A stretch of 45,713 bases of DNA, counting the filler, from Myxococcota bacterium (GTDB lineage: Bacteria > Myxococcota_C > UBA6777): NCBI GenBank assembly GCA_023150835.1. It is 10 parts of 10 records of this genome, joined end to end, with 100 filler letters (N's around TTAATTAATTAA, not from the genome) between each part and the next. Parts side by side here need not be neighbours in the genome. Positions count along the whole stretch, not along the records: positions 18,259 to 22,453 come from JAKLKB010000225.1; 9 more parts are not named here. One strand, written 5' to 3'. Shown in pieces: positions 3,245-45,421 of this stretch (its first letter is position 1; each line of letters opens with the position of its first letter). The notes below the pieces were generated by a model. It was not told where the DNA came from, searched no databases, and saw only the letters and a program-made list of their open reading frames with translations. Made by a program: the position numbers and the translations under genes.

Positions 3245-3484
3245 CCCATCGCTCCTTTGTGGTCCACGCACAATCTCAGAAAACGTCTAACCTATTCTTC
3301 TACCCCCCTCTCGTCAACCCCGACGCAGGCCGAAATAAAAGCTGCTCTGCTGCTCCATGCAGTCAAATCGCGGCTCCATTCCGATGCCCCTGTTCTTTCC
3401 CTCGCTTGTTCACGAAGCGCCCCCCTCTTTCACCCCCGATAAATCGGGCTGCAAGCGGTAAAACGGTAAAACGGTAAACCGCAA

Positions 3485-4378
3485 TTAGGGGCTCGACCTG
3501 ACAACACGAAAACCGATGTCGCCGTAGCGGTCCGCCGGCGTGAGGCTGCTACGACGCGCCGCACGCACGCAGGAGGCACCGCTGCTCCAACCGCCACCCC
3601 GTAGCACGCGCCTTGTGCTTGTAGCTGCTCCAACAGGGTCCGTCGCTGCTTGGGCCGAATAACCACCAGACCAGTCATAGCACCACTCCCACACATTCCC
3701 CAGCGTATCGTGCAGCCCCCACGCATTGGCTTGTTTTTGCCCCACAATATGCGTTGTACCGCCGCTGTTCTCGCCGTACCATGCGATCTGGTCCAACTCC
3801 CCGTAGCGTGGGGTTGCCGCCCCTGCGCGACAAGCGTATTCCCACTCTGCTTCCGTCGGCAATCGCCAGCCTTTGCTTCCCACGTAGTCGCTTCCTTTGT
3901 TTCCCACACCCTCCATCTGCTCGCCAATTTCCACAAAACAAGCCGACAGCCCCTCCAACGCAGACAGTTTGTTTGCAAACACCGCTGCATCGTACCAACA
4001 CACACACTCCACAGGCGCTTCCAATCCTGCTTTCGTGAAATGCGACGGCTTCTTGCCCATCAAAGCGAGGTATTGGCCTTGTGTGACGGGCGTTTCCCCC
4101 ATCCAAAAGCCCCGTAAGATCGTCACTTCGTGTTGCGGCTTTTCGTTGCCACCAGCCTCTTTGCCGTCTGCTCCCGCACCCGCGAGGAAGCGCCCCACAG
4201 GAATCCAGCGCATCGCAATGTCCGCCTCGCCCACGAGAAACACCCGCCGCTCTCCTGCCGATGGTTCCGCGATCTTCGGTGGCGGTGGCGGTGCGACCAC
4301 CTCGATAAAACAAAACACCCCCGATTGGTACAGCTCCCCCAACTGCTCCAACTCTTCCATCAACACTTTCCTCTCCAT
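3485..4378 (-). CDS. FGE-sulfatase (SUMF1/CLec-fold) protein, putative DGR target, copy A
   Basis: Motifs WRLPTEAEWEYACRAG, NAWGLHDTLGNVWEWC, RVLRGGGW and GFRVVR. Short SHOCT-like N-terminus. Paralogue of the genes at 26840 and 29224. Confidence 0.9.
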   Translation of the reverse strand: MERKVLMEELEQLGELYQSGVFCFIEVVAPPPPPKIAEPSAGERRVFLVGEADIAMRWIPVGRFLAGAGADGKEAGGNEKPQHEVTILRGFWMGETPVTQGQYLALMGKKPSHFTKAGLEAPVECVCWYDAAVFANKLSALEGLSACFVEIGEQMEGVGNKGSDYVGSKGWRLPTEAEWEYACRAGAATPRYGELDQIAWYGENSGGTTHIVGQKQANAWGLHDTLGNVWEWCYDWSGGYSAQAATDPVGAATSTRRVLRGGGWSSGASCVRAARRSSLTPADRYGDIGFRVVRSSP

Positions 4379-4571: not shown

Positions 4572-4671
4572 NNNNNNNNNNNNNNNNNNNNNNNNNNNNN
4601 NNNNNNNNNNNNNNNTTAATTAATTAANNNNNNNNNNNNNNNNNNNNNNNNNNNNNNNNNNNNNNNNNNNN
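4572..4671. other. Artificial contig linker (N-run/TTAATTAATTAA/N-run); also at 9222-9321, 13793-13892, 18159-18258, 22454-22553, 26740-26839, 32039-32138, 38266-38365 and 42117-42216
   Basis: Identical 100-nt spacer with stop codons in all six frames. Confidence 0.99.
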
Positions 4672-4930
4672 GGCAAAGACGATCTCTCGTGCAAACAGCG
4701 TGCGGCATGGAAACCCAAAACCTCGCTGACTCCGACTTTCACTCCCTCCCCTGTTCACGGGGGAGGGCTGGGGTGGGGGGCCGACAAGCGCTTAACAAGG
4801 CGCGTATGGGGTGAAACCCCACGCCCCACAAGGGACTGTCGCCCCTTGACCCCGAAAGTGGCGAACAGACCACAAGTCTTTCAACACAACGACTCTGTCG
4901 CTTGAAATACTGCGAACACGGCGTTTTTGG
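4672..4930. repeat. Modular palindromic REP/MITE-like repeat copy
   Basis: Contains CCCTCCCCTGTTCACGGGGAGGG and the ATGGGG..CCCCAC.CCCC.CAAGGG..CCCTTGACCCCG..CGAACACGG module shared with many loci in the window. Confidence 0.8.
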
Positions 4931-6310: not shown

Positions 6311-6473
6311 AGGTTTCGGGGTGGCCGATTCTTCGGCCTTTTGGAACATCCTCTTGGGATGGTTTTTAGGGTTTCAAAGTGGCCGATTCTTCGGCCTTTT
6401 GGAACATCCTCTTGAGATGGTTTTTAGGGTTTCGGAGTGGCCGCTTCTTCGGCCTTTTGGAACATCATCTTGA
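6311..6473. repeat. Three tandem 58-bp copies of the 3' end of the chalcone-isomerase-like gene
   Basis: GTGGCCG(A/C)TTCTTCGGCCTTTTGGAACATC at 6321, 6379 and 6437. Confidence 0.9.
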
Positions 6474-7164
6474 GGTTGTTTGTAAAGTTCTTTTTGGCGT
6501 CTTCGGAGATCGGCTTGTCATCAAGATAAACGGCCATCAAGGCTTGGGCAAAATCCGCATCTGCGATCGGTTCTTTGGCGGTGCCGTTAAGCTTGACAAA
6601 CACCTTGGAGCCTTCTTCATTCCAAGAAAACAGCAGTTCTTCCCCGTCTTTGGCGGGTTCGGTAAAGTAGCCACGAAACTTTGCCAACGCGGCCTTGCCT
6701 GCTTCAGTTTTGAGGCGCGGTTGGATCGATTCGTCAAAAGCGCTGGCCATATCGTCGCCGCTGACGTTAAAGACCATCGCAAGGCGCATCGTCTTGGCGA
6801 ACTTGCCCGTCTGAAGGGCTGTAAAGTAAGCTGCGTCGGTTTTGAGTTTTTCCAAGTCGGCGGTTTTCCAAGCCGCCAAGGCGGTGGCTGCGGCGGTCGG
6901 CTCAGCGTACATCCCCATCGCATAGATATTGATGATCCCCAATTTTTTGCGGATGCCCATCCCCATCAAAAACTGCTTTTTGGTCGAAGCATCCGTGGTG
7001 ATCTCCGCCGCAAACTTCACCTGCGTTCCGTCTTCCGTGAACTCCGCAGGGATCTGGATCTTTCCGTCAGGGTTGGTCTTGATCGGCTCTTTCGGTGGCG
7101 CACATGCTCCCACAAACCACACCACCGCACACAACAAACCCCATCGACACCATGCTTTTCTCAT
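6424..7164 (-). CDS. Chalcone-isomerase-like (fatty-acid-binding CHI fold) lipoprotein
   Basis: Lipobox VGAC. Motifs LMGMGIRKKLGIINIYAMGMY and FAQALMAVYLDDKPIS.DAK, typical of bacterial CHI-like proteins. Confidence 0.8.
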   Translation of the reverse strand: MRKAWCRWGLLCAVVWFVGACAPPKEPIKTNPDGKIQIPAEFTEDGTQVKFAAEITTDASTKKQFLMGMGIRKKLGIINIYAMGMYAEPTAAATALAAWKTADLEKLKTDAAYFTALQTGKFAKTMRLAMVFNVSGDDMASAFDESIQPRLKTEAGKAALAKFRGYFTEPAKDGEELLFSWNEEGSKVFVKLNGTAKEPIADADFAQALMAVYLDDKPISEDAKKNFTNNLKMMFQKAEEAATPKP

Positions 7165-8080: not shown

Positions 8081-9085
8081 TCACCCACCCACCAGCGACA
8101 GGAACAACGCCATCAAACTCGCCCCTGCTGCCGAGGCCAGCGGGATCGACAAGTTGTCGTCGATGCGACGGCTGAATAATTCGGCCAACGCTCCAAAGCA
8201 CGCCGCAGCCATCGACATCCAGAACCCCGACCACATCGGGATCTCGTGATGGAAGATCAACAACACCGCCCATGCCACCAAAGTCCCCACCACCCAAAAA
8301 GTTGCGCTCCCCTCCAAAGATCGCCCATTCACCAGACGCACCCGACCAAATCGACGACCGATCAGCGCTGCCGCAGGATCGGCAAATCCCAAGATGATCA
8401 CCGCCATCGCAGAGATCGCTGGAGGACACGTCAACGCCAACACAAACAACGCATTCACATACCACGTCGCTGAGTTGACGTAGGTGGCCTCGTGAGGATG
8501 TGCGACCTTGTGAAAGATCTTTTGCATCAAAAAGTCATTGAAACGCGGCCAGATCCGACGCGAGATCTCCATCCCCCATACCAACCCAACAAATCCACCC
8601 GCAACCCAGATCATCATGCGCGGAGACAACACAAACTCGATCAAGGCCAAGATCATCAAGCCGTTGCCGACATGATACAGATTGCGTATGTAGTTTGTAG
8701 GCCGCAGATGCGGTACATGAATCGAAAATGTCCCCAAACCGCTGCTGAGATCTTCGTAAGCTGCGATCATCTGTTTTCGGAATTGCGCCCACTCTTGTTT
8801 GATCTGTACCTTCGGCAATCCCCCACGCGGCATCCGCTCTCGGATCATCTCTTGTACCGATTGCCACCGCTGCATCAACGCTTCGACTTCGGCCCGCTTT
8901 CCTGCCGCCTCCATCCATTGCGAAAGCCTCGCTTGAAGCTGCGTCATCCGCTCAACAAGACGCGCCATCCGCTCGCGCAAACCCGCCTCAAGGTCGTCCC
9001 GCCATTGCGCAGGATCCATATCCCGCAACACTTTGTGTAGTTCCAACGCAACTTGCTCGATCTCTATGGTCACCGCAGGTGTCAT
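8081..9085 (-). CDS. Dolichol/phytol/diacylglycerol kinase-like (SEC59/DGK1-type, CTP-dependent) membrane protein with an N-terminal helical domain
   Basis: Motifs RNLYH, ILGFADPAAALIGRRFG, GRSLEGS, AELFS.RIDDNLSIPL and several TM helices. Start uncertain (9085 or 9199). Confidence 0.85.
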   Translation of the reverse strand: MTPAVTIEIEQVALELHKVLRDMDPAQWRDDLEAGLRERMARLVERMTQLQARLSQWMEAAGKRAEVEALMQRWQSVQEMIRERMPRGGLPKVQIKQEWAQFRKQMIAAYEDLSSGLGTFSIHVPHLRPTNYIRNLYHVGNGLMILALIEFVLSPRMMIWVAGGFVGLVWGMEISRRIWPRFNDFLMQKIFHKVAHPHEATYVNSATWYVNALFVLALTCPPAISAMAVIILGFADPAAALIGRRFGRVRLVNGRSLEGSATFWVVGTLVAWAVLLIFHHEIPMWSGFWMSMAAACFGALAELFSRRIDDNLSIPLASAAGASLMALFLSLVGG

Positions 9086-9321
9086 CGTTTTTAAGGCGCG
9101 GAGACCCCCTTCTTTAGAGGGGGGAGGAAGCGCCGCCCTTTCTTTGTGTTGTGAGGGTGGTGGTTCGTGCGGCCAGCCGAGTGGTGGCCTTCTTGACATT
9201 GACGGAAGTGGTGAGGGTTTGNNNNNNNNNNNNNNNNNNNNNNNNNNNNNNNNNNNNNNNNNNNNTTAATTAATTAANNNNNNNNNNNNNNNNNNNNNNN
9301 NNNNNNNNNNNNNNNNNNNNN

Positions 9322-9632
9322 TTTTTTTTTCTCCCCCCCTCAATCCCCCCGTGAACGGGGGGAAGTTGGAACGGGCAGCGTCTGCGCGTCGTGCATACAG
9401 CGTGTGTCATGAAAAAACAAAATCCCCGCTGCTTCCGACTTTCGCTCCCTCCCCTGTTCACGGGGGAGGGCGGGGTGGGGGGGCCAACAAGCGCTTAACC
9501 TAACGCCTATGGGGCAGCGCCCCACACCCCACAAGGGGTCTCAGCCCCCTTGACCCCATACTTGGCGAAAAGAGCACAGGTTTTTTCACACCAACAACGC
9601 TGTCGCGAGAAGTTCTGCGAACACGGGGGGAT
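9322..9632. repeat. Most complete copy of the modular REP/MITE-like element (inverted GTGAAC/GTTCAC hairpins plus CCCCTTGACCCC module)
   Basis: Core near-identical to 13652-13792, 22554-22662, 32139-32246, 36005-36107(-), 38366-38517(-) and 42217-42290(-). The second module recurs at about 660, 4791, 14411(-), 22677, 27577(-), 31408(-), 36104, 38549, 42335 and 45309. Confidence 0.85.
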
Positions 9633-9789
9633 TGCCGACAAGTCGCTCCGATCACGCACAAAAACCATCGATCCCGACAAAAAAACTGCCCCGAAAGCTT
9701 GGACATCAAAGAAATGGGATGTATTTTCCCCCGTATTGTCTTGTTCTCTCACCGCACCCTTTCTTTCCCTTGTGAAGAGGCTGAAAAAG

Positions 9790-13364: not shown

Positions 13365-13892
13365 GATCAACTCCTCCCACACAGATACCCAACGCCACAA
13401 CTCGCCCTCACCATCCGTTCACATCGGATCTCACGGCACAGGCATTGCGGTATAAACAACGCGATCCACAAGGTCAAGGGTTCTTTGTCTCGATGATCTC
13501 GTGTGGCTCGCTATTTCGATCACACGCATCGACCCATACGATCTGTGATCGAAATAGCGTGCGTAGGCACCCTGTCATCGGGCAGCCACAAGGGGATGCC
13601 CCCATACGCGCCTTGTTAAGGTGGAAACCTCGTAGAGTCGGTCTTGATCGCCTTTTTTTTTCTCCCCCCCTCAATCCCCCCGTGAACGGGGGGAAGTTGG
13701 AACGGGCAGCGTCTGCGCGTCGTGCATACAGCGTGTGTCATGAAAAAACAAAATCCCCGCTGCTTCCGACTTTCGCTCCCTCCCCTGTTCACNNNNNNNN
13801 NNNNNNNNNNNNNNNNNNNNNNNNNNNNNNNNNNNNTTAATTAATTAANNNNNNNNNNNNNNNNNNNNNNNNNNNNNNNNNNNNNNNNNNNN

Positions 13893-14049
13893 AAACATTG
13901 CACATCGCACACTTTTTCCAAAAACATTGCACATCGCACACTTTTTCCAAAAACATTGCACATCGCACACTTTTTCCAAAAACATTGCACATCGCACACT
14001 TTTTCCAAAAACATTGCACATCGCACACTTTTTCCAAAAACATTGCACA
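13893..14049. repeat. 29-bp perfect tandem repeat (AAAACATTGCACATCGCACACTTTTTCCA), at least 5 copies, truncated by the contig start
   Basis: Period 29 with no spacers. Confidence 0.95.
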
Positions 14050-14317
14050 CTGCACAAGGGCGATCCCGAGCGCAACGAGCAACAAAACTTGCGCGACGGC
14101 TGCGTCACCTTGCGCGACGGCTTGGCGGCTTCGTTTTTTGGGATCGGAAACCATGCGCTTTGGAAGATTGTTTTCCCACCACAAAATGTCCTTGTATTTC
14201 ATCAGGATAGAAAACCATCTCCAAACCACACAAGCTCCAAAACAAAACACCCCTTACTCTGCTTTTTTCATCAAAAAGCGTTCTGTGCGGAAGATCGGGC
14301 TGGATGGTTCGGTTACG

Positions 14318-14415
14318 AAGGTCCAAAACCCAAAATGCAAGGTCCAAAACCCAAAATGCAAGGTCCAAAACCCAAAATGCAAGGTCCAAAACCCAAAATG
14401 CAAGGTCCAAAACCC
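14318..14415. repeat. 21-bp tandem repeat AAGGTCCAAAACCCAAAATGC, about 4.7 copies
   Basis: Read directly from the sequence. Confidence 0.95.
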
Positions 14416-14571
14416 CCGTGTTCGCGCCCGTTCACGCGGCAGAGTCGTCTGTATGGAAAACATCGGTTCACCGCGCCAATACGGGGTCAAGGGGGCGGCG
14501 ACCCCTTGCGGGGCGTGGGGCAGCGCCCCACAAAATTCCCAAAAAACAACACCAAAACAAACGCAAGCGGA

Positions 14572-18158: not shown

Positions 18159-18258
18159 NNNNNNNNNNNNNNNNNNNNNNNNNNNNNNNNNNNNNNNNNN
18201 NNTTAATTAATTAANNNNNNNNNNNNNNNNNNNNNNNNNNNNNNNNNNNNNNNNNNNN

Positions 18259-18398
18259 CCGAACTGAGGCGGCATCCGAGGGTCTCTACATACTCTCTAT
18301 CGTTTACAAACAACTTGGCTTGCGCCACTTCCTCTGTTGTCGTCTGGTCAACCGGACTTGCCGAAACAAGCCCGCCCCTTTAGGGGTGGGTCATTGAC
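18259..18398 (-). ncRNA. 5' part of an OMEGA omega-RNA (HEARO-like) and end of an IscB-type IS200/IS605 element
   Basis: Minus strand reads GTCAATGACCCACCCCTAAAGGGGCGGGCTTG TTTCGG CAAGTCCGGTTGACCAG...ACCCTCGGATGCCGCCTCAGTTCGG, matching the GTCAA/hairpin/GTTGACCAG/GGATGC..CAGT pattern I recall for IscB loci. Truncated by the contig edge. Confidence 0.8.
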
Positions 18399-18489
18399 CT
18401 TCTGCAAACAAGACGTGCGGAGAGGAGCTGCGCAGCGGTGGCAAGGGAAGCGATCCCGACAAAGCAGGTCGGTGTGGTGAAGCAGGGGC

Positions 18490-19367: not shown

Positions 19368-19604
19368 CCTACCTTTGTTTTGCCTATATCGCTTTGCCAA
19401 ACAAGCCGATGCGTTGGCCTTCGTGGCTTGTGTCTGTGCGTTGGCTGGGTGGCTTGCTCGCAGCGTATTCTTGACGTTTTGCTTTTTTTGTCAATCTCTA
19501 CTTGACATCTCCTAGTCTTTTGTAGAGATTCTGTTTGAACGAAGATTCAGACGGATCGGATCGTTGTCCGTTCTTCAAATCCAAGGGGTCTGTTGACCCT
19601 AAAA

Positions 19605-19620
19605 ATGAATCATTATTCAT
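19605..19620. promoter_or_regulatory. Palindromic operator ATGAAT-CATT-ATTCAT upstream of the acyl-CoA dehydrogenase
   Basis: Perfect 6-bp inverted repeat in the divergent tetR/acyl-CoA dehydrogenase intergenic region. Confidence 0.6.
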
Positions 19621-19690
19621 CACCCAAATGAGAAGCGTCCGCCCCTTGGTGGACATGGGTTGGATGAGCCAACAAGTGAGGCAGAAAGCA

Positions 19691-21457
19691 ATGCAGATCT
19701 ACAAAGCACCGCTCGAAGACATGAGATTCCTTTTGGAAGCGCTTGGCTATGAAGAAGTGGCCCGTCTCAAGAACTACGCGGACTTCGATTTGGATACGGT
19801 GATGGCGATCTTGGAAGAGAACGCCAAGTTTTGTACGAACGAGATGTTGCCGTTGAATCGGGTGGGCGATGTGGAAGGTGTGAAGTTTCACCCGGAAGAT
19901 GCGAGCGTGACGACGGCCCCCGGCTTTAAGGAGTTGTACAAGAAGTTTTCAGAAGCAGGGATGTTGAGTTTGTCGCAAACGGCGGAATATGGGGGAGGTG
20001 GAGCGCCGTATGTGGTGGGGATGATCTTGTCGGAGATGTCGACGTCCACAAACAAGAGCTTTACGATGTGTCCCGGGCTGACGCACGGTTTGATCGATGC
20101 GTTGTTGCATCACGGGGCAGAAGATTTAAAGAAGGCGTATTTGCCGAAATTGATCTCGGGGGAATGGACAGGGACGATGTGCTTGACGGAGCCGCAGTGT
20201 GGGACAGATCTGGGCTTGATCAAGTCCAAGGCGACTCCTACGCCCGATGGCGACGGCTATTTGCTGACAGGTACAAAGATCTGGATCACCTTTGGCGAGC
20301 ATGACATGGCCGACAATATCGTCCACTTGGTGTTGGCACGTCTGCCCGATGCACCCGAAGGGATCAAGGGCATCAGCTTGTTTTTGGTTCCGAAGTTCAC
20401 GTTGGACGGAAAGCGCAACGCGATCTATTGCGGTGGTTTGGAACACAAGATGGGCATCCATGCTTCGCCGACGTGCGTGATGAATATGGAAGATGCGCGG
20501 GGTTGGCTGGTGGGTGAGCCGCACAAAGGGATGCGTGCGATGTTTACGATGATGAACTCTGCGCGTCTTGGCGTGGGGATGGAAGGTGTGGCTTTGTCGG
20601 AGATCGCCTACCAAACGGCGCTGGCATTCGCCAAGGATCGCCGCCAAAGCCGTTCGCTGAATCCGGCTCGTCAAGACGCCCATGCTGCCGCCGACAATAT
20701 CTTGGTACACCCCGATGTGCGTCGGATGCTGTTGAATGTACGCGCAAGCAACGAAGCTATGCGCGCTTTGGGCTATTTTGTGGCCAAACACCACGACTTG
20801 AGCCTGCACCACGAAGATCCCCAAGTTCGCGAAGAATCCGATGATCTTGTCGGCTTGTTGACTCCGATCATCAAGAGCTTCTTTACAGAACGCGGCTTTT
20901 TGAATGTGTCGGATGCGTTGCAGATGATGGGTGGGGCGGGCTATACACAGGATTGGTCGGTGGAGCAGTATCTTCGGGATCTGCGGATCGCGATGCTGTA
21001 TGAAGGAACCAACCACGTTCAAGCCCTTGACTTGGTGGGGCGCAAACTGCCGCGCAATATGGGCCGTTCTTTTATGAAGTTCAGCAGCCTGATCACGGAC
21101 TTCTTGCGCGAAAACAAAGAAAACCCCGCATTGGCGGAGTTTTTGACTCCGCTGAAAGAAACTTCCAAAAAGCTGAACCAAGTGACCATGAGTCTCAGCG
21201 AAACCGCGATGGCCGATCCCGAGATGGTGGGCGCGGTCGCCTCCAATTACCTCAATCTGTTCGCTTACACGGCGCTGGCCTATATGTGGTGCTTGCAGTT
21301 GAAAGCGGCTGTGCAGCGCGGCGATAAGTTCGGTCAAACCAAGATCAAAACCGCTCGCTTTTTCTTCCGAAACTTGTTGCCCGAAGTCGACGCGCTTGTG
21401 CAGTGTATCGCCGCTGGAAAAGACACCGTGATGGACTTTGAAGCCGGCGAGTTCTAA
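19691..21457 (+). CDS. Acyl-CoA dehydrogenase (FadE5/DmdC-like, with ACAD N and C extensions)
   Basis: Start MQIYKAPLEDMRF. Motifs GTMCLTEPQCGTDLG, GTKIWITFGEHD, EHKMGIHASPTC and LYEGTNHVQALDLVGRK. Confidence 0.95.
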   Translation: MQIYKAPLEDMRFLLEALGYEEVARLKNYADFDLDTVMAILEENAKFCTNEMLPLNRVGDVEGVKFHPEDASVTTAPGFKELYKKFSEAGMLSLSQTAEYGGGGAPYVVGMILSEMSTSTNKSFTMCPGLTHGLIDALLHHGAEDLKKAYLPKLISGEWTGTMCLTEPQCGTDLGLIKSKATPTPDGDGYLLTGTKIWITFGEHDMADNIVHLVLARLPDAPEGIKGISLFLVPKFTLDGKRNAIYCGGLEHKMGIHASPTCVMNMEDARGWLVGEPHKGMRAMFTMMNSARLGVGMEGVALSEIAYQTALAFAKDRRQSRSLNPARQDAHAAADNILVHPDVRRMLLNVRASNEAMRALGYFVAKHHDLSLHHEDPQVREESDDLVGLLTPIIKSFFTERGFLNVSDALQMMGGAGYTQDWSVEQYLRDLRIAMLYEGTNHVQALDLVGRKLPRNMGRSFMKFSSLITDFLRENKENPALAEFLTPLKETSKKLNQVTMSLSETAMADPEMVGAVASNYLNLFAYTALAYMWCLQLKAAVQRGDKFGQTKIKTARFFFRNLLPEVDALVQCIAAGKDTVMDFEAGEF

Positions 21458-21530
21458 GCCCTCACCCCCCAGCCCCCCCTCTCCCTCTCCCCGCTTGCTG
21501 TGCTGCGGAGGTATAGTGGACCCCTAAATT

Positions 21531-21818
21531 GCCGCTCACAGAAGCCATCGATACAACTACGGTGGGTGGATGATGATGCAAATGCTCGGTGTTGTCGCTG
21601 AATTTGAACGAGCCATGATCTCCGAACGCACCAAAGCGAGGATCGAATCGGCTCAAAGGCACGAACATCAACTCAGTCGCCCTTTTGCCCTCAATGCTTC
21701 ACAGCGCGGGGAGATCACACGTCGGGTCGCTTCGGGAGATTGGTCACAAGCCGAAGCAGCGAGGTTATTTGATGTTGATCGCTCGACGATCTGTCGCATG
21801 ATGTGGCTGGATGGTTAA
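21531..21818 (+). pseudogene. Serine resolvase/invertase remnant (C-terminal helix plus HTH)
   Basis: LTEAIDTTT followed by a frameshift into MMMQMLGVVAEFERAMISERT...EAARLFDVDRSTI. The catalytic N-terminus is absent. Confidence 0.8.
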
Positions 21819-22078
21819 TCATAGTGACCCCACATCCGAAGTACCTTGACCGTCCGTTCTTCCTCTAAAACCTCGTACACCAAACGATGCTGAATGTTGA
21901 TCCGCCTCGAATACGCACCCGCCAGATCACCTACGAGCTTTTCATAGGGCGGGGGGTTTTGAAAAGGGTTTTCTTGGAGAATACCTAGCAACATCTGAGC
22001 TTTTTCTTTCAGGCCGGCTGCAGCGAGGTTTTTGGCATCTTTTTGAGCTTGCTTGGTAAAGACGATCTGCCAGCTCAC
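21815..22078 (-). CDS. yoeB: Txe/YoeB family toxin
   Basis: GTG start overlaps the antitoxin stop. Motif PPYEKLVGDLAGAYSRRINIQHRLVYEV..VKVLRMWGHY. Confidence 0.93.
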   Translation of the reverse strand: MSWQIVFTKQAQKDAKNLAAAGLKEKAQMLLGILQENPFQNPPPYEKLVGDLAGAYSRRINIQHRLVYEVLEEERTVKVLRMWGHYD

Positions 22079-22317
22079 CAGTCCAGCTCCTTGGCGCACT
22101 CTCCTATCGGGGTTTCCATTCCCTCCCGAATCGATTCCTTCATCCCCGGGATGGAAAGTAGGTAAAGCGTTTCTTGGATCGCTCGCCAATCCTCTTCTGC
22201 GATCAGCACTGCGGATCCTCTCTTGCCTGTGATCTGGATCGGTTCATGAGACTGACATAGCTCGTCAATCAACCGATAGATTCGCTCTCGTGCTTGGCTT
22301 GCTGTGATCGTAATCAT
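22075..22317 (-). CDS. yefM: Phd/YefM family antitoxin
   Basis: MITITASQARERIYRLIDE..HEPIQITGKRGSAVLIAEEDWRAIQETLYLLSIPGM. Confidence 0.93.
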   Translation of the reverse strand: MITITASQARERIYRLIDELCQSHEPIQITGKRGSAVLIAEEDWRAIQETLYLLSIPGMKESIREGMETPIGECAKELDW

Positions 22318-22453
22318 CGTTTCTTCGGCGTGGAGACCCCTGCCTTTAGGCGGGCTTTGAAACGCCGTCCTTTCTTCGTGTGTAAGCGTATCCATCGGTG
22401 TGTTGAAGGATACGACAATGTTTGTAAGAAATGCCTTGTGTGGTACCACTTCG
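22318..22453 (-). mobile_element. 3' end of an IscB-type IS200/IS605 (OMEGA) element, copy 1
   Basis: Identical to 41983-42116. Subterminal hairpin CCCGCCTAAAGGCAGGGG. Junction ...GAAGAAACG|ATGA. Confidence 0.82.
22346..22453 (-). CDS. iscB: RNA-guided endonuclease IscB, C-terminal 35 aa only
   Basis: My translation RSGTTQGISYKHCRILQHTDGYAYTRRKDGVSKPA* fits the IscB C-terminal QGI..K.C..(L/I)Q..DGY.Y motif. Not in the ORF track. Confidence 0.8.
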   Translation of the reverse strand, partial: RSGTTQGISYKHCRILQHTDGYAYTRRKDGVSKPA

Positions 22454-22879
22454 NNNNNNNNNNNNNNNNNNNNNNNNNNNNNNNNNNNNNNNNNNNNTTA
22501 ATTAATTAANNNNNNNNNNNNNNNNNNNNNNNNNNNNNNNNNNNNNNNNNNNNGCAGCGTCTGCATTTCGTGCATACAGCGTGCGTCATGAAAAAACAAA
22601 ATCCCCGATGCTTCCGACTTTCGCTCCCTCCCCTGTTCACGGGGGAGGGCGGGGTGGGGGGCTTTCCTCCGCTTCACCTAACGCCTATGGGGTTCCACCC
22701 CACACCCCGCAAGGGGTCGCAGCCCCCTTGACCCCGTGTGGGCGAAAAGAGCAGCCTTTTTTACACCAACGACTCTGTCGCTTGAACCTCCGCGAACACG
22801 GGGTTTTTACAACAGCTTCGCTGCACTCTACAAGCCGCATCCGTCCTGCGTTTCTGTGGGGCTTGCATCGCCCTGCTGT

Positions 22880-26637: not shown

Positions 26638-26839
26638 CGTTGACTCCTTCGTTTGAAAAGATCTCGGTGAATCCGAGAACACAGGGACTCTCCAAGCCCC
26701 TTTGAGAAATGCGCCGACTTTGACACGGATCTCTCGGCCNNNNNNNNNNNNNNNNNNNNNNNNNNNNNNNNNNNNNNNNNNNNTTAATTAATTAANNNNN
26801 NNNNNNNNNNNNNNNNNNNNNNNNNNNNNNNNNNNNNNN

Positions 26840-27295
26840 TGTTTTGTGGGAAGCGGGGAAAAGATGGAAGGGGTGGGGAACAAAGGAAGCGATTACGTCG
26901 GGTGCAAGGGCTGGCGTTTACCGACGGAAGCAGAGTGGGAATACGCTTGTCGTGCGGGTGCGACAACGCCGCGTTATGGAGAGTTAGACGAGATCGCGTG
27001 GCATGGGAAGAACAGCGGCAGCACAACGCATGTTGTGGGGCAAAAACAAGCCAATGCGTGGGGGTTGCACGATACGCTAGGGAATGTGTGGGAGTGGTGC
27101 TATGACTGGTTTGGTGGTTATTCGGCCCAAGCAGCTACAGACCTTGTTGGAGCAGCTACAGGCGCGAACCGCGTGAGGCGTGGTGGCAGTTGGAACTACA
27201 ACGCCTACTTCGTGCGGGCGGCGCAGCGCGGCAGCAACACGCCGACGTACCGCAACAACCTCATCGGTTTCCGTGTCGTCAGGTCGAGCCCCTAG
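26840..27295 (+). CDS. FGE-sulfatase/CLec protein, C-terminal part, putative DGR target, copy B
   Basis: Same FGE motifs as copy A. Truncated by the contig start. Asn-rich variable C-terminus. Confidence 0.9.
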   Translation, partial: CFVGSGEKMEGVGNKGSDYVGCKGWRLPTEAEWEYACRAGATTPRYGELDEIAWHGKNSGSTTHVVGQKQANAWGLHDTLGNVWEWCYDWFGGYSAQAATDLVGAATGANRVRRGGSWNYNAYFVRAAQRGSNTPTYRNNLIGFRVVRSSP

Positions 27296-27848
27296 TTGCG
27301 GTTTGCCGTTTTACCGTTTTACCGTTTGCGGCCCGAACAATCGGGGGTGAAAGAGGGTGGTCGCTTCGTGAACGAATGTGTTGTCCGTCGACAGTGCAGT
27401 AGTGTACGCAGTATAGAGTGCGGCGGGTTCTGATGGGCGTGGCGCTTCAGGACGCAAGGCAGCGAGCTCCGCCGCGCCGCGTCGTGAAGTGTCGCGCTAG
27501 GCTTGCGGAGCGAGGCGCAAGTTCGGGGGGGGGGTTAGGGGCGTCTGTGGCTGGGGTTGGCGATGATGGGAGAAAGCACCGGTGTTCGTGGAGGTTCAAG
27601 CGACAGAGGCGTTGTTTTGAAAAGCGACGTTCTTTTCGCCCTCGCGGGGTCAAGGGGCGACAGTCTATGGCGGGGGTTTGGGGGCAGGCCCCCAAAAACA
27701 ATGGAAGAATCAAGGTGTAGGTTTGCAGAAGAGAAAGGAAAAGGCGGATGAAGGTGAAGGTGTTCAATTGAAGTGATGATGAGGAGACGGGCGGATTTGA
27801 TAGCAGCGATTTGGAGGCGCTGGGGGAGGAGAAGAGAAGGGCGAGAGG

Positions 27849-29223: not shown

Positions 29224-31109
29224 ATGGACAAGAAAGCGTTGATGGAAGAGTTGGAGCAGTTGGGGAAGTTGTACCAAGCGGGGGTGTTTTCACAGGCGGA
29301 GTTTGAAGCGCAACGAGCGGAGTTGTTGGAGCAGTTACGGTTGTTACGCAGTGGGCAGACGCCGATGCCGTCCAAAGGTGGTGGAAGTGGACTCAGCCAA
29401 GTACACGGTGCGGATGTGCTGGCAACGGGATTTGTGGGAGGGCAAGGGCAGACGGGGCTGGGTGTGGGTCGGGTGGTGGGGGAGCGTTATCGGTTGGTGC
29501 GGAGGTTGGGGCAAGGTGGGATGGGCGAAGTGTGGTTGGCCGAAGATATCCGCTTGGGTCGGGCGTTTGCGCTGAAGTTTTTGGCCGATGCGTTGGTGGG
29601 TTCAGCAGAAGCGTTGGGGCGGATGCACCGAGAATATGAAGTGCTCGAAAAACTGTCGCATCCGCATATTGTGCGCGTCTTCGATCTGGATCAGGACAAA
29701 GACAGCGGGCGCTGGTTTCTGCGAATGGAGTATGTGGAAGGCGGAGACTTGGGGAAAAAGATCGCGGTGGTGGCGCAACAAGCCCACCGACCGCTGTTTG
29801 GGATGGAGGTGATGGTAGGTTGGTTGGGGCAGCTAGTGGAGGCGTTGGATTATGCCCATCAACAGGGGATCTTGCACCGCGACATCAAGCCCGCAAATCT
29901 AATGCTGACGAGCGATCTGCAGCGATTGAAAGTGATGGACTTTGGGATAGCGCGTGTGGTGAGCGGAACACATACGACTCAACACACGGCGATGATGGGA
30001 TCGATGTACTATGCCGCACCTGAGCTTTTGCGTGGTCAAGTAGCCACTCCCTCAGCGGATATCTATTCGTTTGGTGTGTTGGTGTACGAGATGTTGACGG
30101 GGGAACCGCCGATGGGACATTTCGAGAAACCGTCTTTGGTGGTGGATGGGCTTTCGGTAGAGGTGGATCGACCGCTGCTGGGGATGTTATCGCCAAACCC
30201 GACAAAACGGGGAGAATCGTTGCGCGAGGCGTGGTCGCCGTTGCGGGATGCGCTGCTTGGAAAAGCGACGACAGTGGTTGTGCCACCCCAGCCCGCGCCA
30301 GCATCGCCAAAGATCGAGGTGATCGCACCGCCACCGCCACCGAAGATCGCGGAACCATCGGCAGGAGAGCGGCGGGTGTTTCGCGTGGGTGGGGCGGAGT
30401 TTGCGATGCGCTGGATCCCTGCGGGGCGTTTCCTCATGGGCGCAGGAGCCGATGACAAACAGGCCGATGGCGACGAAAAACCGCAACACGATGTGACAAT
30501 CACGCGGGGGTTTTGGATGGGGGAGGTGCCCGTCACACAGAGCCAATACCAAACGATCATGGGCCAAAATCCATCGCATTTCAAAAAGGCTGGATCGGAT
30601 GCACCTGTGGAGCGGGTGAGTTGGTACGATGCTGCGGTGTTTGCAAACGAACTGTCAGCGTTGGAGGGGCTATCGGCTTGTTTTGTGGGAAGCGGGGAAA
30701 AGATGGAAGGGGTGGGGAACAAAGGAAGCGATTACGTCGGGTGCAAGGGCTGGCGTTTACCGACGGAAGCAGAGTGGGAATACGCTTGTCGTGCGGGTGC
30801 GACAACGCCGCGTTATGGAGTGGAAACAGCGGCAAGACAACGCATGCTGTGGGGCAAAAACAAGCCAATGCGTGGGGGTTGCACGATACGCTAGGGAATG
30901 TGTGGGAGTGGTGCTATGACTGGTTTGGTGGTTATTCGGCCCAAGCAGCTACAGACCTTGTTGGAGCAGCTACAGGCACGAGCCGCGTGTTGCGTGGTGG
31001 CGGTTGGAACGACAACGCCTACAGCGTGCGGGCGGCGCAGCGTTTCGACTACGCGCCGTCGTCCCGCTACTACTACTTCGGTTTCCGTGTCGTCAGGTCG
31101 AGCCCCTAG
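29224..31109 (+). pseudogene. SHOCT + Ser/Thr kinase + FGE-sulfatase/CLec protein, putative DGR target, copy C, frameshifted near 30820
   Basis: LEQLGKLYQAGVFSQAEFEAQRAELL (SHOCT). Kinase motifs LGQGGMGEVW, HRDIKPAN, DFG and YAAPE. FGE domain split between ORFs 29161..30894 and 30513..31109 by a net 25-nt deletion relative to copy B. Confidence 0.85.
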
Positions 31110-31786
31110 TTGCGGTTTGCCGTTTTACCGTTTTACCGTTTGCGGCCCGAACAATCGGGGGTGAAGAGGAGGGCGGCTTCGTGAACGAATGTGTTGTCCC
31201 TGGACAGTGCAGTAGTGTATGCAGTATAGAGTGCGGTGGGTTCTGATGGGCGTGGCGCTTCAGGACGCAAGGCAGCGAGCTCCGCCGCGCCGCGTCGTGA
31301 AGTGTCACGCTAGGCTTGAGGAGCGAGGCGCAAGTTCGGGGGGGGTTAGGCTGGGAGGGTTAGGGTGGGGGGCGTCTGTGGCTGAAGTTGGCGATGATGG
31401 GAGAAAACATCGGTGTTCGTGGAGGTTCAAGCGACAGAGGCGTTGTTTTGAAAAGCGATGTTCTTTTCGCCCTCGCGGGGTCAAGGGGCGACAGTCTATG
31501 GCGGGGGTTTGGGGGCAGGCCCCACAGAAAGAGGCTGCAAAAAGGCAACGCCCCACTTATTCACATTTGGCTCATGTTGTGTTTTGAGGTCTTCTAAGGT
31601 ACCTCATGAGCGACGTTTTTGATCGAGTGGGTCCGTTCAAACCAACGCCATGAGAGAGGTATCAAGAGGCAACACTTCTCAGCGAAGGCAACCACACATG
31701 GTTGCCCCTACGTGTTGGAAATCACACGGTGTTTTATAGGGGCAGACAGGTGTGCCTGCCCGATCTCTGTTGCGTCGGTGACCTCT

Positions 31787-32038: not shown

Positions 32039-32364
32039 NNNNNNNNNNNNNNNNNNNNNNNNNNNNNNNNNNNNNNNNNNNNTTAATTAATTAANNNNNN
32101 NNNNNNNNNNNNNNNNNNNNNNNNNNNNNNNNNNNNNNGCAGCGTCTGCATTTCGTGCATACAGCGTGCGTCATGAAAAAACAAAATCCCCGATGCTTCC
32201 GACTTTCGCTCCCTCCCCTGTTCACGGGGGAGGGCGGGGTGGGGGGCTTTCCTCCGCTTCACCTAACGCCTATGGGGGTAATCCCCTGTGGCTGCCCGAG
32301 AACAGGGCGTCTTCTCTCAGATATCGTCAGGCCACAAGACACGAAAACCAAAGGACATCAGACC

Positions 32365-35931: not shown

Positions 35932-36234
35932 CCTTTTCTCTCCCTTCTTGTTGGTTTGCTTTTGTGGGGTTCCACCCCATAGGCGTTAGGTTAAGCGCTT
36001 GTTGGCCCCCCCACCCCAGCCCTCCCCCGTGAACAGGGGAGGGAGCGAAAGTCGGAAGCAGCGGGGATTTTGTTTTTTCATGACACACGCTGTATGCACG
36101 ACGGCGCGTATGGGGTTCCACCCCACGCCCCGCAAGGGAACTGCGTCCCCTTGACCCCGTATCGGCGAACCGATCATCGCTTTTCACCCCAACGGCTCTG
36201 TCGCTTGAAATGGCGCGAACACGGGGGAGTTTGG

Positions 36235-36430
36235 GGTGCGTGCAACGGACAGGGGTTTGTGGCGCACGACGGGCATGGTCTTGAGTTGCGCACAACGAAC
36301 AGGGGTTTGGAGCGCGTGCAACGGGCATGGTCTTGAGTTGCGCACGACGGACTGGGTTTTGAACTGCGCACAACGAACAGGGGTTTGGATCGCGTGCAAC
36401 GGACTGGGTTTTTGTAATGTTCAACGGACG
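36235..36430. repeat. Degenerate tandem repeats (CGTGCAACGG.../GAGTTGCGCAC.ACG...GGGTTT)
   Basis: Several imperfect 24-48 bp units in intergenic DNA. Confidence 0.7.
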
Positions 36431-37985: not shown

Positions 37986-38265
37986 TGTAGGGGCAGCCCC
38001 CTGTGGCTGCCCAAGAATCGGGCGTCTCCGAATGACGCTTTGTGTGCGCTTCTTACGGATACTGTAGGGGCAGCCCCCTGTGGCTGCCCAAGAATCGGGC
38101 GTCTCCGAATGACGCTTTGTGTGCGCTTCTTACGGATACTGTAGGGCAGACCCCTGTGGCTGCCCAAGAATCGGGCGTCTCCGAATGACGCTTTGTGTGC
38201 GCTTCTTACGGATACTGTAGGGGCAGCCCCCTGTGGCTGCCCAAGAATCGGGCGTCTCCGAATGA
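37986..38265. repeat. 77-bp tandem repeat (about 3.6 copies) built on a GTAG-type REP hairpin (GTAGGGGCAGCCCCCTGTGGCTGCCC)
   Basis: Units start at 37986, 38063, 38140 and 38216. Single related REPs near 13580, 31690-31760, 32275 and 40662. Confidence 0.9.
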
Positions 38266-38772
38266 NNNNNNNNNNNNNNNNNNNNNNNNNNNNNNNNNNN
38301 NNNNNNNNNTTAATTAATTAANNNNNNNNNNNNNNNNNNNNNNNNNNNNNNNNNNNNNNNNNNNNGCCCTCCCCCGTGAACAGGGGAGGGAGCGAAAGTC
38401 GGAAGCATCGGGGATTTTGTTTTTTCATGACGCACGCTGTATGCACGAAATGCAGACGCTGCCCGTTCCAACTTCCCCCCGTTCACGGGGGGATTGAGGG
38501 GGGGGAGAAAAAAAAAGGCGATCAAGACCGACTCGACGAGGTTTCCACCTTAACAAGGCGCGTATGGGGTTTCACCCCACGCCCCACAAGGGAGCGCGGC
38601 TCCCTTGACCCCGTATCGGTGGGGTGAATAGCGATGTTTAAACCAACAACGGCACTGCTTGAAGTTCCGCGAACATGGGGTTTTTTGTTCGCTGCGCCGT
38701 TGCTATGATCGTTTGATGGCATCGTTTTGGGGTGGTGTTTTAATCGGATGGTTGCACAAGAGGGAGGAGTGT

Positions 38773-40743: not shown

Positions 40744-41982
40744 TCAGCGATATTTGGCGAGTCCGGGTTGGTATTCCCAGTGCCAATGTTCGATGGGGAT
40801 GCGTTTGAAGCCGAACTTGTGGGCGTTGTTGGCGAGCCAGTTGTAGACTTTGCCGGTGCCGTGGCTGCGACTGGAGCCTTGGGTGTTGAGGTCGAGTGCG
40901 ACGCCGCTTTGGTGGTTGGAGTATCCCGGTCTTGCGGCGGGGTTGTAGCCGGGGAGGCGGCGTTGCCAGCCATTCCAGAGGGCTTGTTGTTGCTCCATGG
41001 TGCGAAAGCCAGAGACGATGTTGAGGTTGACGCCATCTTTGGCGGCGGCGGCTTTCATGCGCAGATAGGCTTTGGCGGTATCGACTTCGACTTTTTTTCC
41101 GTCGACGGTGGCGACTTGGATATTGCGTGCGACGCCGTTGACGTAGCCTTTGGTGCTCGACACGGGGCCAAGGCCGGGTACGTTGCCAGAGGGCGGAGTG
41201 ACGGGGTGTTTCATCGCGTCTTTGCCTTTTTCAAGGGCAGCCCATGTCTTGGGACCGACGACGCCATCGGCACTGAGTCCTGCGGCTTGTTGGAAAGATC
41301 GAACGGCGTTGGCCGTTCCGGGGCCAAAGTTGCCATCCACACCACCGGGATTGATCCCGAGGCTTTTGAGGCGGTTTTGGAGGGTGGTGACGTGTTGGCC
41401 TTTGGAGCCTTCACGCAAGACGGCATTGGGGGCTTTGAAGGAAGGTGCTGGGGGTTTGGGGATGGGTTTGGGGGCTGGTGCAGGGGAGGCGTTGTCTTTT
41501 TCGAGGGCGTCCCACGTCTTGGGTCCGACGACGCCGTCGGCAGTCAATCCTGCTTTGCGTTGGAATTCTTTGACGGCGGCCTCTGTTTTGGGTCCAAAGT
41601 CCCCGTCGGCAGCGCCCGGATTGAAGCCAAGGGCCTTGAGGCGATTTTGAAGAGTTGTGACGTGCGCGCCTTTGGAGCCTTCGCGCAGTACGACGTTGGG
41701 AGCAGCAAAGCGGCTGGCACCTGCGGAGGCTGCGCTTCGTGCGCGGGGTGCGCCGGTCGAGGGGGTTTGAGCGAATCCGCCTGTGACGGGTCCACCGCCG
41801 ACATCGCGTTGAAGGGATGCGCCAAGAGTCGTGTTGGCGACAGGAGCCGATGGTGCCGCAGGGATCGCACCGCCGAAACTGTTTTGTGGTGGGGATATCT
41901 GAGCGGGGGAGGGGGCGCTCAACTTTTGGGCGGGGATCTGGGGGGAGGGGATGTTCGGTTTTTGTTCGGAACGGATCTTCAT
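40744..41982 (-). CDS. Peptidoglycan-binding protein with an M15 (VanY-like) D,D-peptidase domain
   Basis: Two PG_binding_1 domains (LREGSKG.HVTTLQNRLK.LG..DG.FGP.T..AV..FQ..AGL.ADGVVGPKTW). Zinc motifs SGFRT..Q, SNHQSGVALD and EHWHW. Confidence 0.92.
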   Translation of the reverse strand: MKIRSEQKPNIPSPQIPAQKLSAPSPAQISPPQNSFGGAIPAAPSAPVANTTLGASLQRDVGGGPVTGGFAQTPSTGAPRARSAASAGASRFAAPNVVLREGSKGAHVTTLQNRLKALGFNPGAADGDFGPKTEAAVKEFQRKAGLTADGVVGPKTWDALEKDNASPAPAPKPIPKPPAPSFKAPNAVLREGSKGQHVTTLQNRLKSLGINPGGVDGNFGPGTANAVRSFQQAAGLSADGVVGPKTWAALEKGKDAMKHPVTPPSGNVPGLGPVSSTKGYVNGVARNIQVATVDGKKVEVDTAKAYLRMKAAAAKDGVNLNIVSGFRTMEQQQALWNGWQRRLPGYNPAARPGYSNHQSGVALDLNTQGSSRSHGTGKVYNWLANNAHKFGFKRIPIEHWHWEYQPGLAKYR

Positions 41983-42116
41983 CGTTTCTTCGGCGTGGAG
42001 ACCCCTGCCTTTAGGCGGGCTTTGAAACGCCGTCCTTTCTTCGTGTGTAAGCGTATCCATCGGTGTGTTGAAGGATACGACAATGTTTGTAAGAAATGCC
42101 TTGTGTGGTACCACTT
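41983..42116 (-). mobile_element. iscB: 3' end of the IscB-type element, copy 2 (iscB C-terminus at 42011-42116)
   Basis: Identical to 22318-22451. Junction ...GAAGAAACG|ATGA. Confidence 0.82.
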
Positions 42117-42472
42117 NNNNNNNNNNNNNNNNNNNNNNNNNNNNNNNNNNNNNNNNNNNNTTAATTAATTAANNNNNNNNNNNNNNNNNNNNNNNNNNNN
42201 NNNNNNNNNNNNNNNNACACGCTGTATGCACGACGCGCAGACGCTGCCCGTTCCAACTTCCCCCCGTTCACGGGGGGATTGAGGGGGGGCGACAAAAGAA
42301 ACGGCGATCAGGCTAGACTATCCGGTGTTTCCACCTTAACAAGGCGCGTATGGGGCGTGGCCCCACACCCCACAAGGGAGCTTGGCCTCCTTGACTCCGC
42401 ACCATCTTACACCAAGCCGACCCAAAAAAGCACAGGTACCACCCCGTTGCTTGCTCAGGCCGAGGTTTTCCG

Positions 42473-45276: not shown

Positions 45277-45421
45277 AACGAAAAGCGAGCGCGGTCGCCT
45301 CGGTTTGGTGGGGTTGGAACCCCACTCCCCGCAAGGGGCTCTCGCCCCTTGACCCCGTACAGGCGAAACGATCACGGCTTTTCATAGCGCTCCCACCTAC
45401 GCATAAGCACGATCAAAAAAA

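Follow-up and report, generated by a model that had tools for sequence, protein, structure and literature searches.

How does the end of a mobile element come to coincide, to the base, with the start codon of a host gene, and to do so more than once in the same DNA? The question arises from a 45,713-nt stretch of DNA (the window) from the Myxococcota bacterium assembly GCA_023150835.1, in which positions 22318-22451 and 41983-42116 are identical, letter for letter, over 134 nt. Read on the minus strand, both copies end in ...AAACG and run into a common ATGA (TCAT on the plus strand, 22314-22317 and 41979-41982), and the first base past it differs between the two, A versus T on the plus strand. 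A first-pass annotation of this DNA had described the identity, its extension through ATGA and the divergence beyond, all of which we confirm. As detailed below, the stretches are very probably the left ends of nonautonomous ISC-type transposons of the IS200/IS605 superfamily, which carry IscB and a HEARO/omega RNA as cargo and insert at a fixed position 5' of ATGA, and most of the copies that survive are found where the ATG of that target opens a host reading frame.

The minus-strand frame of the 134-nt repeat comprises 35 residues and a stop, including QGISYKHCRILQHTDGYAY, and had been taken for an IscB-like C-terminus. This assignment holds: in a tblastn search of plasmids with the 35-aa C-terminus, 14 of the 20 matches listed are genes annotated iscB, and the full copies found in relatives encode IscB. 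A sequence search of the Protein Data Bank with the same fragment returned a chance match to PaaB (0.13) alone. Each 134-nt copy is cut off by the end of its contig, a usual outcome when an assembler fails to resolve a repeat, and the bodies of the elements are therefore unassembled in the window. Three genomes served for comparison, namely a Myxococcota metagenome-assembled genome (MAG; G001), a better-assembled relative (G002) and a third related genome (G004).

G002 contains five full copies of 1547-1549 nt, which are 93.7-97.2% alike. The 410-aa open reading frame (ORF) of a full copy scores 324 bits with the NCBIfam model guided_IscB (NF040563; cut-off 175), and it also matches the Pfam families RRXRR (PF14239) and HNH (PF01844). 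The upstream RNA of both IscB/HEARO subfamilies in the relatives matches Rfam HEARO (RF02033) at 84.9 and 83.3 bits, just above the gathering score of 83. The match spans the full model (1-211 of 211), and model position 1 falls on the first base of the element, which opens with GTCAA. The same GTCAA opens the right end at 28/28 G001 sites, which were found with that pattern. An Rfam scan of the whole window at the gathering threshold gave no match, since only the first 140 nt of HEARO is present there. The IscB N-termini of G001 likewise lie at contig ends. One internally deleted copy is assembled in full inside a G001 contig and runs from the flank through a ~300-nt scaffold, a shortened iscB, the hairpin and the tail to ATGA; the shortened iscB joins an IscB N-terminus to the C-terminus of the window copy, and HEARO RNA accompanies it.

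In the nomenclature of IS200/IS605, the transposon's left end is what had been called the IscB element's 3' end, and the window holds more than the two insertions noted at first, as a third left end and one right end are also present (Table 1). In variant 1, represented by the two identical copies, the iscB stop is followed by a 28-nt tail finishing in ...CG. The third left end (variant 2) is ~62% identical to variant 1 and encodes another IscB C-terminus, with the two-tier hairpin and the ...CG terminus as in variant 1. This two-tier hairpin recurs in four left-end variants, with each fold taken alone being no better than those of shuffled sequences (z of -1.1 to -1.9). All window left ends finish in ...CG, and the tails in G002 vary (AG, GG, AC) and contain an A-run of changing length. 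Seven G004 copies (L138-L144) form a third left-end subfamily, in which a tail of 23-26 nt carries AAAGG or GGAGG 11-13 nt before the host ATG and may act as a replacement ribosome-binding site.

The sequence that follows the left end does not vary. With repeats of the same flank removed, ATGA is found after the left end in 57/57 distinct junctions, which were drawn from the window, from the three comparison genomes, from contigs of metagenomes and from TnpB elements of actinobacteria with a search pattern that did not contain ATGA. In the scan of the genome collection, this pattern consisted of the last 23 bases of the left end with variable positions left open, and it returned 20 loci: 18 in G001, one in a Streptosporangiaceae MAG and one chance match. 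By source, the counts are 3/3 in the window, 21/21 in G001, 10/10 in G002 and 7/7 in G004, whose copies, having the longer tail, were scored as a separate set. ATGA also follows all 31 metagenome matches that have the hairpin context. Eight matches to the core motif without this context (L004, L107, L112, L145, L146, L147, L187 and L193) were left out of the tally; none of them is followed by ATGA, and they are treated as chance. The occurrence of left end plus ATGA in all 57 junctions argues that the pattern does not arise by chance. The fifth base is A in 24 of the first 50 junctions, and beyond ATGA the flanks show no obvious conservation at any position. These data uphold the earlier statement that the elements use a short fixed target, which is given as N/ATGA (the slash marking the insertion point) in the main text of PMC4810608. 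The published target-adjacent motif (TAM) of IscB, TTCAT 5' of the left end in the preprint 10.1101/2023.03.14.532601, equals this target.

Uninterrupted alleles indicate to whom the ATGA belongs. The flanking genes in G001 are 88-94% identical to those in the window, and for two of the three left-end insertions G001 has an allele without the element. Before the peptidase gene, the empty allele reads GGAGG, an 8-nt spacer and then ATGA; before the 334-aa ORF, a GAGGA-plus-A-run leader is followed directly by ATGA. Because both alleles carry ATGA at the exact base, it is pre-existing host sequence, and insertion involves no duplication. The same alleles show that the element separates, to the base, the start codon from the ribosome-binding site. 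An empty allele for the yefM-yoeB insertion was not found in G001, where the match ends in the neighboring gene at a contig end.

With the target thus defined, the position of its ATG relative to host genes can be counted. Of 55 scorable junctions, 47 have an ATG from which a frame of 74 aa or more is open, and these divide into 40/48 (eight open shorter frames, and two more junctions ran off short contigs) and 7/7 in G004. The corresponding controls are 170/461 ATGA sites at the G001 loci and 32% of 1882 ATGA sites in 320 kb of G002, that is, 32-37% of ATGA sites overall. When the 1882 G002 sites are classed, 55 (~3%) are predicted starts, 308 are intergenic and 1519 are genic; conversely, ATGA is present at 56/156 predicted ATG starts. 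Among sites at which insertion spares the ORF, starts would be expected at ~15% (55/363), or at most ~28% after hand correction for missed genes. The observed 40/48 gives p = 2e-15 against an expectation of 0.28 and p = 1.7e-6 against 0.5. Together with the two empty alleles, these counts, which include the comparison with all ATGA sites, support the first-pass proposal that the element lands between a gene and its ribosome-binding site without breaking the ORF.

Domain positions bear on whether the junction ATGs are real starts. Ten of the ORFs were compared with Pfam, and in nine of them the match to the first domain opens at profile positions 1-7 and lies within residues 4-29 of the protein. 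These nine include transaldolase, acyl carrier protein, GlyS (glycyl-tRNA synthetase beta subunit), an RNase T-like exonuclease and a response regulator, the remainder being acetaldehyde dehydrogenase, YjeF_N, a protein kinase and an IMP cyclohydrolase-like protein. Several other junction ORFs begin, by eye, with signal-peptide-like sequence. Judged from domain placement, the junction ATGs are the predicted true N-termini. For the two identical window copies, the ATG had been read as the start of yefM and as the likely start of a peptidoglycan peptidase gene, and both readings are sound: YefM residues 1-69 align with positions 1-70 of the PhdYeFM_antitox profile (PF02604), and the second ATG starts a PG-binding/VanY peptidase gene of 412 aa.

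The opposite side of the element can be examined in the same way. A Shine-Dalgarno motif is present in the right-end flank at 11/28 G001 sites, versus 38/461 (8.2%) control sites (p = 6.8e-6), and the same rule is passed by 3/7 IscB-type G002 copies. A second measure for the right-end flanks, the longest open frame upstream, was dropped as it gave no separation of junctions from controls in GC-rich DNA. With HEARO position 1 at the first base of the element, these flanks support, on structural grounds, the suggestion that the host 5' untranslated region (UTR) serves as the omega-RNA guide; in most surviving copies the flank that yields the guide is the last part of the host 5' UTR. Plasmid copies annotated by the Prokaryotic Genome Annotation Pipeline give a mixed picture. 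The next gene starts at the ATGA in Polaromonas (L204) and Campylobacter fetus (L205), and in five other annotated plasmid copies it does not start at the ATGA after the end. In both L204 and L205, the annotated iscB ORF crosses the left end and needs the first A of the host ATGA to complete its stop codon, so that this stop and the annotated ATG of the next gene have one base in common.

A number of observations weigh against this interpretation. Eight of the 55 scorable junctions are not at starts; by our own ORF scoring, several of these lie beyond the end of an opposite-strand gene, and another precedes a start by 17 nt and thus also that gene's own ribosome-binding site. The right-end copy at 18259-18398 is not a start-codon insertion, as its flank lies inside a response-regulator-like ORF, and the G001 allele at this site reads ACGA, not ATGA; one synonymous difference in the window organism would turn that ACGA into ATGA. 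The Shine-Dalgarno rule is passed by only those 11 of the 28 right-end flanks. The control for starts comes from a crude gene caller (202 genes in 320 kb), and the share of starts is approximate. Because the lineages sampled are few and related, the junctions are only partly independent of one another. The window contains no more than 134-140 nt of any one element, and the full anatomy is that of relatives at 88-97% identity. Finally, a Y1 transposase with matching hairpins was not found in a PF01797 search of G001, G002 and G004. This search gave no match in G001, two full and one weak in G002, and four in G004, and the two G002 Y1 genes sit in a tnpA-tnpB IS605 element with end hairpins unlike those studied here.

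The left end is not confined to IscB elements. TnpB elements in G002 and in actinobacterial contigs have the same left end with tnpB on the opposite strand: L001 and L128 match PF01385, PF07282 and PF12323 on that strand, and L172, L178, L181, L185, L190, L194 and L198 give TnpB matches there as well. These IS605B-type elements (L001, L128, L131, L133 and others) have the same hairpin, tail and ATGA target and differ in cargo; none lies within the window. Those with opposite-strand cargo are at starts in 7/7 scorable cases, with one ambiguous. Since the TnpB elements show the same start bias, IscB is not its cause, and the bias, first presented as a property of IscB, is common to both kinds of cargo.

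What, then, produces the bias? The placement may be a pure by-product, in which the ATGA target, the enrichment of A as fourth coding base and the action of purifying selection suffice and the genes behind the insertions are dispensable or silenced; we give this explanation slightly less than an even chance. ATGA contains ATG, the 56/156 predicted ATG starts that read ATGA fit the required A, and adenine enrichment at the fourth site of coding sequences is the subject of a published paper (PMC5850271). Moreover, no clearly intragenic left-end junction is found among the 57, which indicates that strong filtering acts, and the orientation of the cargo has no effect. However, a pure by-product predicts survivors mainly at intergenic ATGA sites (308 versus 55 at starts), where only 8/55 are found, and the housekeeping gene glyS lies behind one insertion.

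A second explanation is active preference or adaptation, whereby the N/ATGA lineage is tuned to starts more strongly than the motif and the loss of ORF-breaking copies can explain. Such tuning could operate through easier access of the transposase to unstructured single-stranded DNA near starts, through a left end that serves as a portable region for translation initiation or coupling, or through better retention where the host promoter feeds the omega RNA. The excess of starts, 40/48 plus 7/7 against the ~15% or ~28% expected of ORF-sparing sites, argues for it, as do the glycyl-tRNA synthetase beta subunit, transaldolase and acyl carrier protein genes behind insertions, the one-base overlap of the iscB stop with the next ATG in the Polaromonas and Campylobacter fetus plasmid copies, and the AAAGG or GGAGG in the longer G004 tails. 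Nevertheless, the opposite-strand TnpB elements are also at starts, so that feeding of iscB by the host promoter is not the sole cause; the flanks lack a visibly conserved base outside ATGA; the control counts are rough; and insertion at the remaining intergenic sites may do more damage than supposed. On balance we regard active preference as possible but rather unlikely.

It may also be proposed that the N/ATGA branch of IS200/IS605, with either IscB or TnpB cargo, has become specialized for start codons and that its left end is a portable leader by which the displaced host gene continues to be translated, an idea that we consider doubtful. The leader would work through an A-rich tail, through a Shine-Dalgarno-like tail (G004), or through an iscB stop fused to the host ATG (Polaromonas and Campylobacter). 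In such a start-codon niche, the omega RNA of IscB elements would owe both its expression and its guide to the promoter and 5' UTR of the host gene, the element and the gene would form one expression unit, and the nuclease would police the joint between ribosome-binding site and ATG of the empty allele. Lastly, it is extremely improbable that the 134 nt and ATGA are an artifact of assembly or scaffolding, or that ATGA is part of the element and not of the host: both window copies are at contig ends beside N-linkers, and the contig order may be arbitrary, but the junctions lie 134 nt inside contigs, independent public-run contigs span the junction base (19547-22343 and 19889-22341), the same junction type occurs deep inside G002 contigs of 62-543 kb, and the uninterrupted alleles already hold ATGA.

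The arrangement that we propose for the IscB transposons is as follows. On the iscB strand, the order is host flank (the guide), right end with GTCAA, iscB, a short tail ending in ...CG and host ATGA; the right-end GTCAA is at position 1 of the omega-RNA scaffold, and the iscB stop is situated in the loop of the left-end hairpin. On the top strand of the transposon, this reads as TCAT and then the left end. Insertion occurs immediately 5' of ATGA without duplication, with ATGA acting as transposase target and, by the published rule, as nuclease TAM. Copies would come to lie mostly in the gap that separates a gene's Shine-Dalgarno sequence from its start codon because ATGA includes ATG, because about one-third of genes with an ATG start have A at +4, and because insertions that break an ORF are lost. 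The host ORF would be spared, and the final stretch of its 5' UTR would become the omega-RNA guide. The host promoter would presumably transcribe the guide, scaffold and iscB and continue through the left end into the host gene. Translation of the displaced gene may start with the help of the A-rich tail or through re-initiation once iscB has been translated. Preferential insertion or preferential retention could explain why starts outnumber the remaining noncoding ATGA sites.

With respect to expression, a scan of a full copy revealed no sigma-70-like promoter and no intrinsic-terminator-like site, which fits the view in the Meers 2023 preprint that the guide is transcribed from outside. Read-through from iscB into the host gene, as put forward in the first-pass annotation, finds no support in the RNA-run contigs. 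These cover 19547-22343 and, at the yefM junction, enter the element by just 26 letters, short of the 31 that the scoring rule required. These contigs carry no strand information. The contig begins near the start of a plus-strand acyl-CoA dehydrogenase gene and more likely belongs to the mRNA of that gene.

Table 1. Coordinates of transposon ends, host targets, host genes and other features in the window
Feature	Position	Strand	Remarks
Left end of ISC/IscB transposon, variant 1 (3' end in iscB orientation)	22318..22453	-	Clipped by contig end 22453
Last 35 IscB codons of variant-1 left end	22349-22453	-	
iscB stop of variant-1 left end	22346-22348	-	In loop of subterminal hairpin
Host target ATGA	22314..22317	-	ATG 22317..22315 = yefM start codon
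Left end, second identical variant-1 copy	41983..42116	-	Clipped by contig end 42116
Host target ATGA	41979..41982	-	ATG 41982..41980 = start of PG-binding/VanY peptidase gene
Third left end, variant 2	9086..9221	-	Clipped by contig end 9221
Host target ATGA	9082..9085	-	ATG opens 334-aa ORF
Right end of IscB element, first 140 nt of HEARO/omega-RNA scaffold	18259..18398	-	GTCAA at 18398; off contig end at 18259
Host flank, would-be omega-RNA guide of right-end copy	18399..18418	-	Inside response-regulator-like ORF
yefM/phd antitoxin gene, 80 aa	22075..22317	-	Begins at junction ATG; Pfam PF02604 (PhdYeFM_antitox) 6.4e-19
YoeB/ParE-like toxin ORF	21815..22078	-	PF06769 2.1e-09, PF05016 4.6e-07
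412-aa host gene	40744..41982	-	Two PG_binding_1 domains and VanY D-Ala-D-Ala carboxypeptidase domain (Pfam)
334-aa ORF behind third left end	8081-9085	-	No Pfam family
82-aa ORF	21570-21818	+	End of resolvase domain and helix-turn-helix
N-runs	4572-4671, 9222-9321, 13793-13892, 18159-18258, 22454-22553, 26740-26839, 32039-32138, 38266-38365, 42117-42216		
Module B copies	656-782, 4791-4928, 9494-9633, 22672-22808, 36095-36231, 38549-38685, 42335-42400, 45310-45376		
Module B copies, reverse	27560-27657, 31391-31488		
Modules A/C sites	9322-9480, 13600-13792, 22554-22660, 32139-32246, 36007-36103, 38366-38520, 42217-42300		
Tandem arrays	13893-14056, 14318-14422, 6312-6485, 36259-36412, 37991-38265		Periods 29, 21, 58, 26 and ~77 nt
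Duplicated gene segments	26840-27692 and 30679-31523		92-100% alike
Inverted copies of duplicated segments	3408-4306		84%

The host genes behind the first copy are a YefM-YoeB type II toxin-antitoxin pair, in which the yefM stop overlaps the start of the toxin ORF. The 82-aa resolvase-like ORF adjoins this pair; the segment that contains it is missing from the matching G001 region and may be accessory DNA in its own right.

As to the composition of the window, it is a chain of ten contigs of ~3.5-6 kb split by nine N-runs, each with the same 12-base linker. Six successive contigs decrease in size, from 4571 nt (the first, clipped by the window start) through 4550, 4471, 4266 and 4195 to 4186 nt, which suggests that contigs adjacent in the window may not be neighbors in the genome. 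Other repeats are found across the N-gaps. Module B is a ~125-nt repeat with two GC-rich hairpins, of which the window contains about ten copies and G001 many loci at 73-88% identity. Modules A and C, each with a GC-stem hairpin around a GTTCAC/GTGAAC loop, make up a ~190-nt unit that is found beside module B in both orientations; a good many contigs end within the A/C unit, and no match to these modules was found among the loci compared. Modules A, B and C were considered as omega RNA and rejected, as they do not match it, and B is a separate repeat. Some of the tandem arrays also lie at contig ends, and the duplicated gene segments encode, by eye, a formylglycine-generating-enzyme-like motif.

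Derivatives and possible relatives of the transposons were also noted in the other genomes. In G002 (C8), a 47-nt mini-element (L130) consists of approximately the first 15 right-end bases fused to approximately the last 32 left-end bases and then ATGA; it looks like the outcome of recombination between two similar end hairpins. Three interior right-end matches in G001 (L084-L086) were rejected as full elements and are solo remnants of ~36-80 nt, one of which directly precedes an ATGA that opens a 634-aa frame. G002 also has two copies, 96% alike, of a ~1.85-kb element (L165 and L167) in which a longer frame follows that of a Y1 transposase. The hairpins at its ends are unlike those of the IscB elements, and each copy, when read on the tnpA strand, starts directly at an ATGA.

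Much of this agrees with what has been described for the family. Kapitonov, Makarova and Koonin (2016; PMC4810608) reported ISC transposons with an N/ATGA target, 5'-GT and CG-3' termini and no duplication, the N/ATGA members in the main text being ISC1-1_MA, ISC2-1_HM and ISC2-1_MS. The elements described here have in common with them the IscB-only nonautonomous cargo, the 5'-GT(CA) and CG-3' termini, the subterminal imperfect hairpins, insertion 5' of ATGA without duplication and a 3' terminus shared with opposite-strand TnpB elements (IS605B). Unlike the elements in that account, they occur in new hosts, an uncultured Myxococcota group and the actinobacterial TnpB relatives, and two IscB/HEARO subfamilies share one end type. 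Neither "start codon" nor "initiation codon" occurs in the main text of PMC4810608, whose supplementary figures, outside this scope, may show examples; relative to that main text, the location of 47/55 junctions at start codons is therefore an added observation.

A similar comparison can be made with the Geobacillus stearothermophilus IscB element of the Meers 2023 preprint (10.1101/2023.03.14.532601). It likewise has a TAM, TTCAT (ATGAA on the iscB strand), 5' of its left end and an omega RNA composed of the right-end scaffold and a guide encoded outside the element. According to this preprint, the guide needs outside transcription and upstream genes tend to be co-oriented. It gives this orientation bias and not start-codon placement. 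In the portions of the literature searched, a start-codon bias of the N/ATGA lineage was not found stated. The element type, the ATGA target and the rule that the target equals the TAM are already established, and this is not a new system; the start-codon placement is a quantified corollary of a member of a known family.

These results have several practical consequences. In this lineage, roughly five surviving copies out of six separate, to the base, a ribosome-binding site from its start codon. The natural guides of IscB omega RNAs in such genomes would mostly be the ends of 5' UTRs, including Shine-Dalgarno sequences, and dozens of host genes, some of them housekeeping, could be expressed only if a selfish element of 1.5 kb is transcribed and translated through. 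At the joints between element and gene, starts may be misplaced or genes fused by annotation pipelines. Finally, since TnpB and IscB cargos of opposite orientation show the same bias, they offer a clean test of insertion versus retention in the choice of sites by the IS200/IS605 superfamily.

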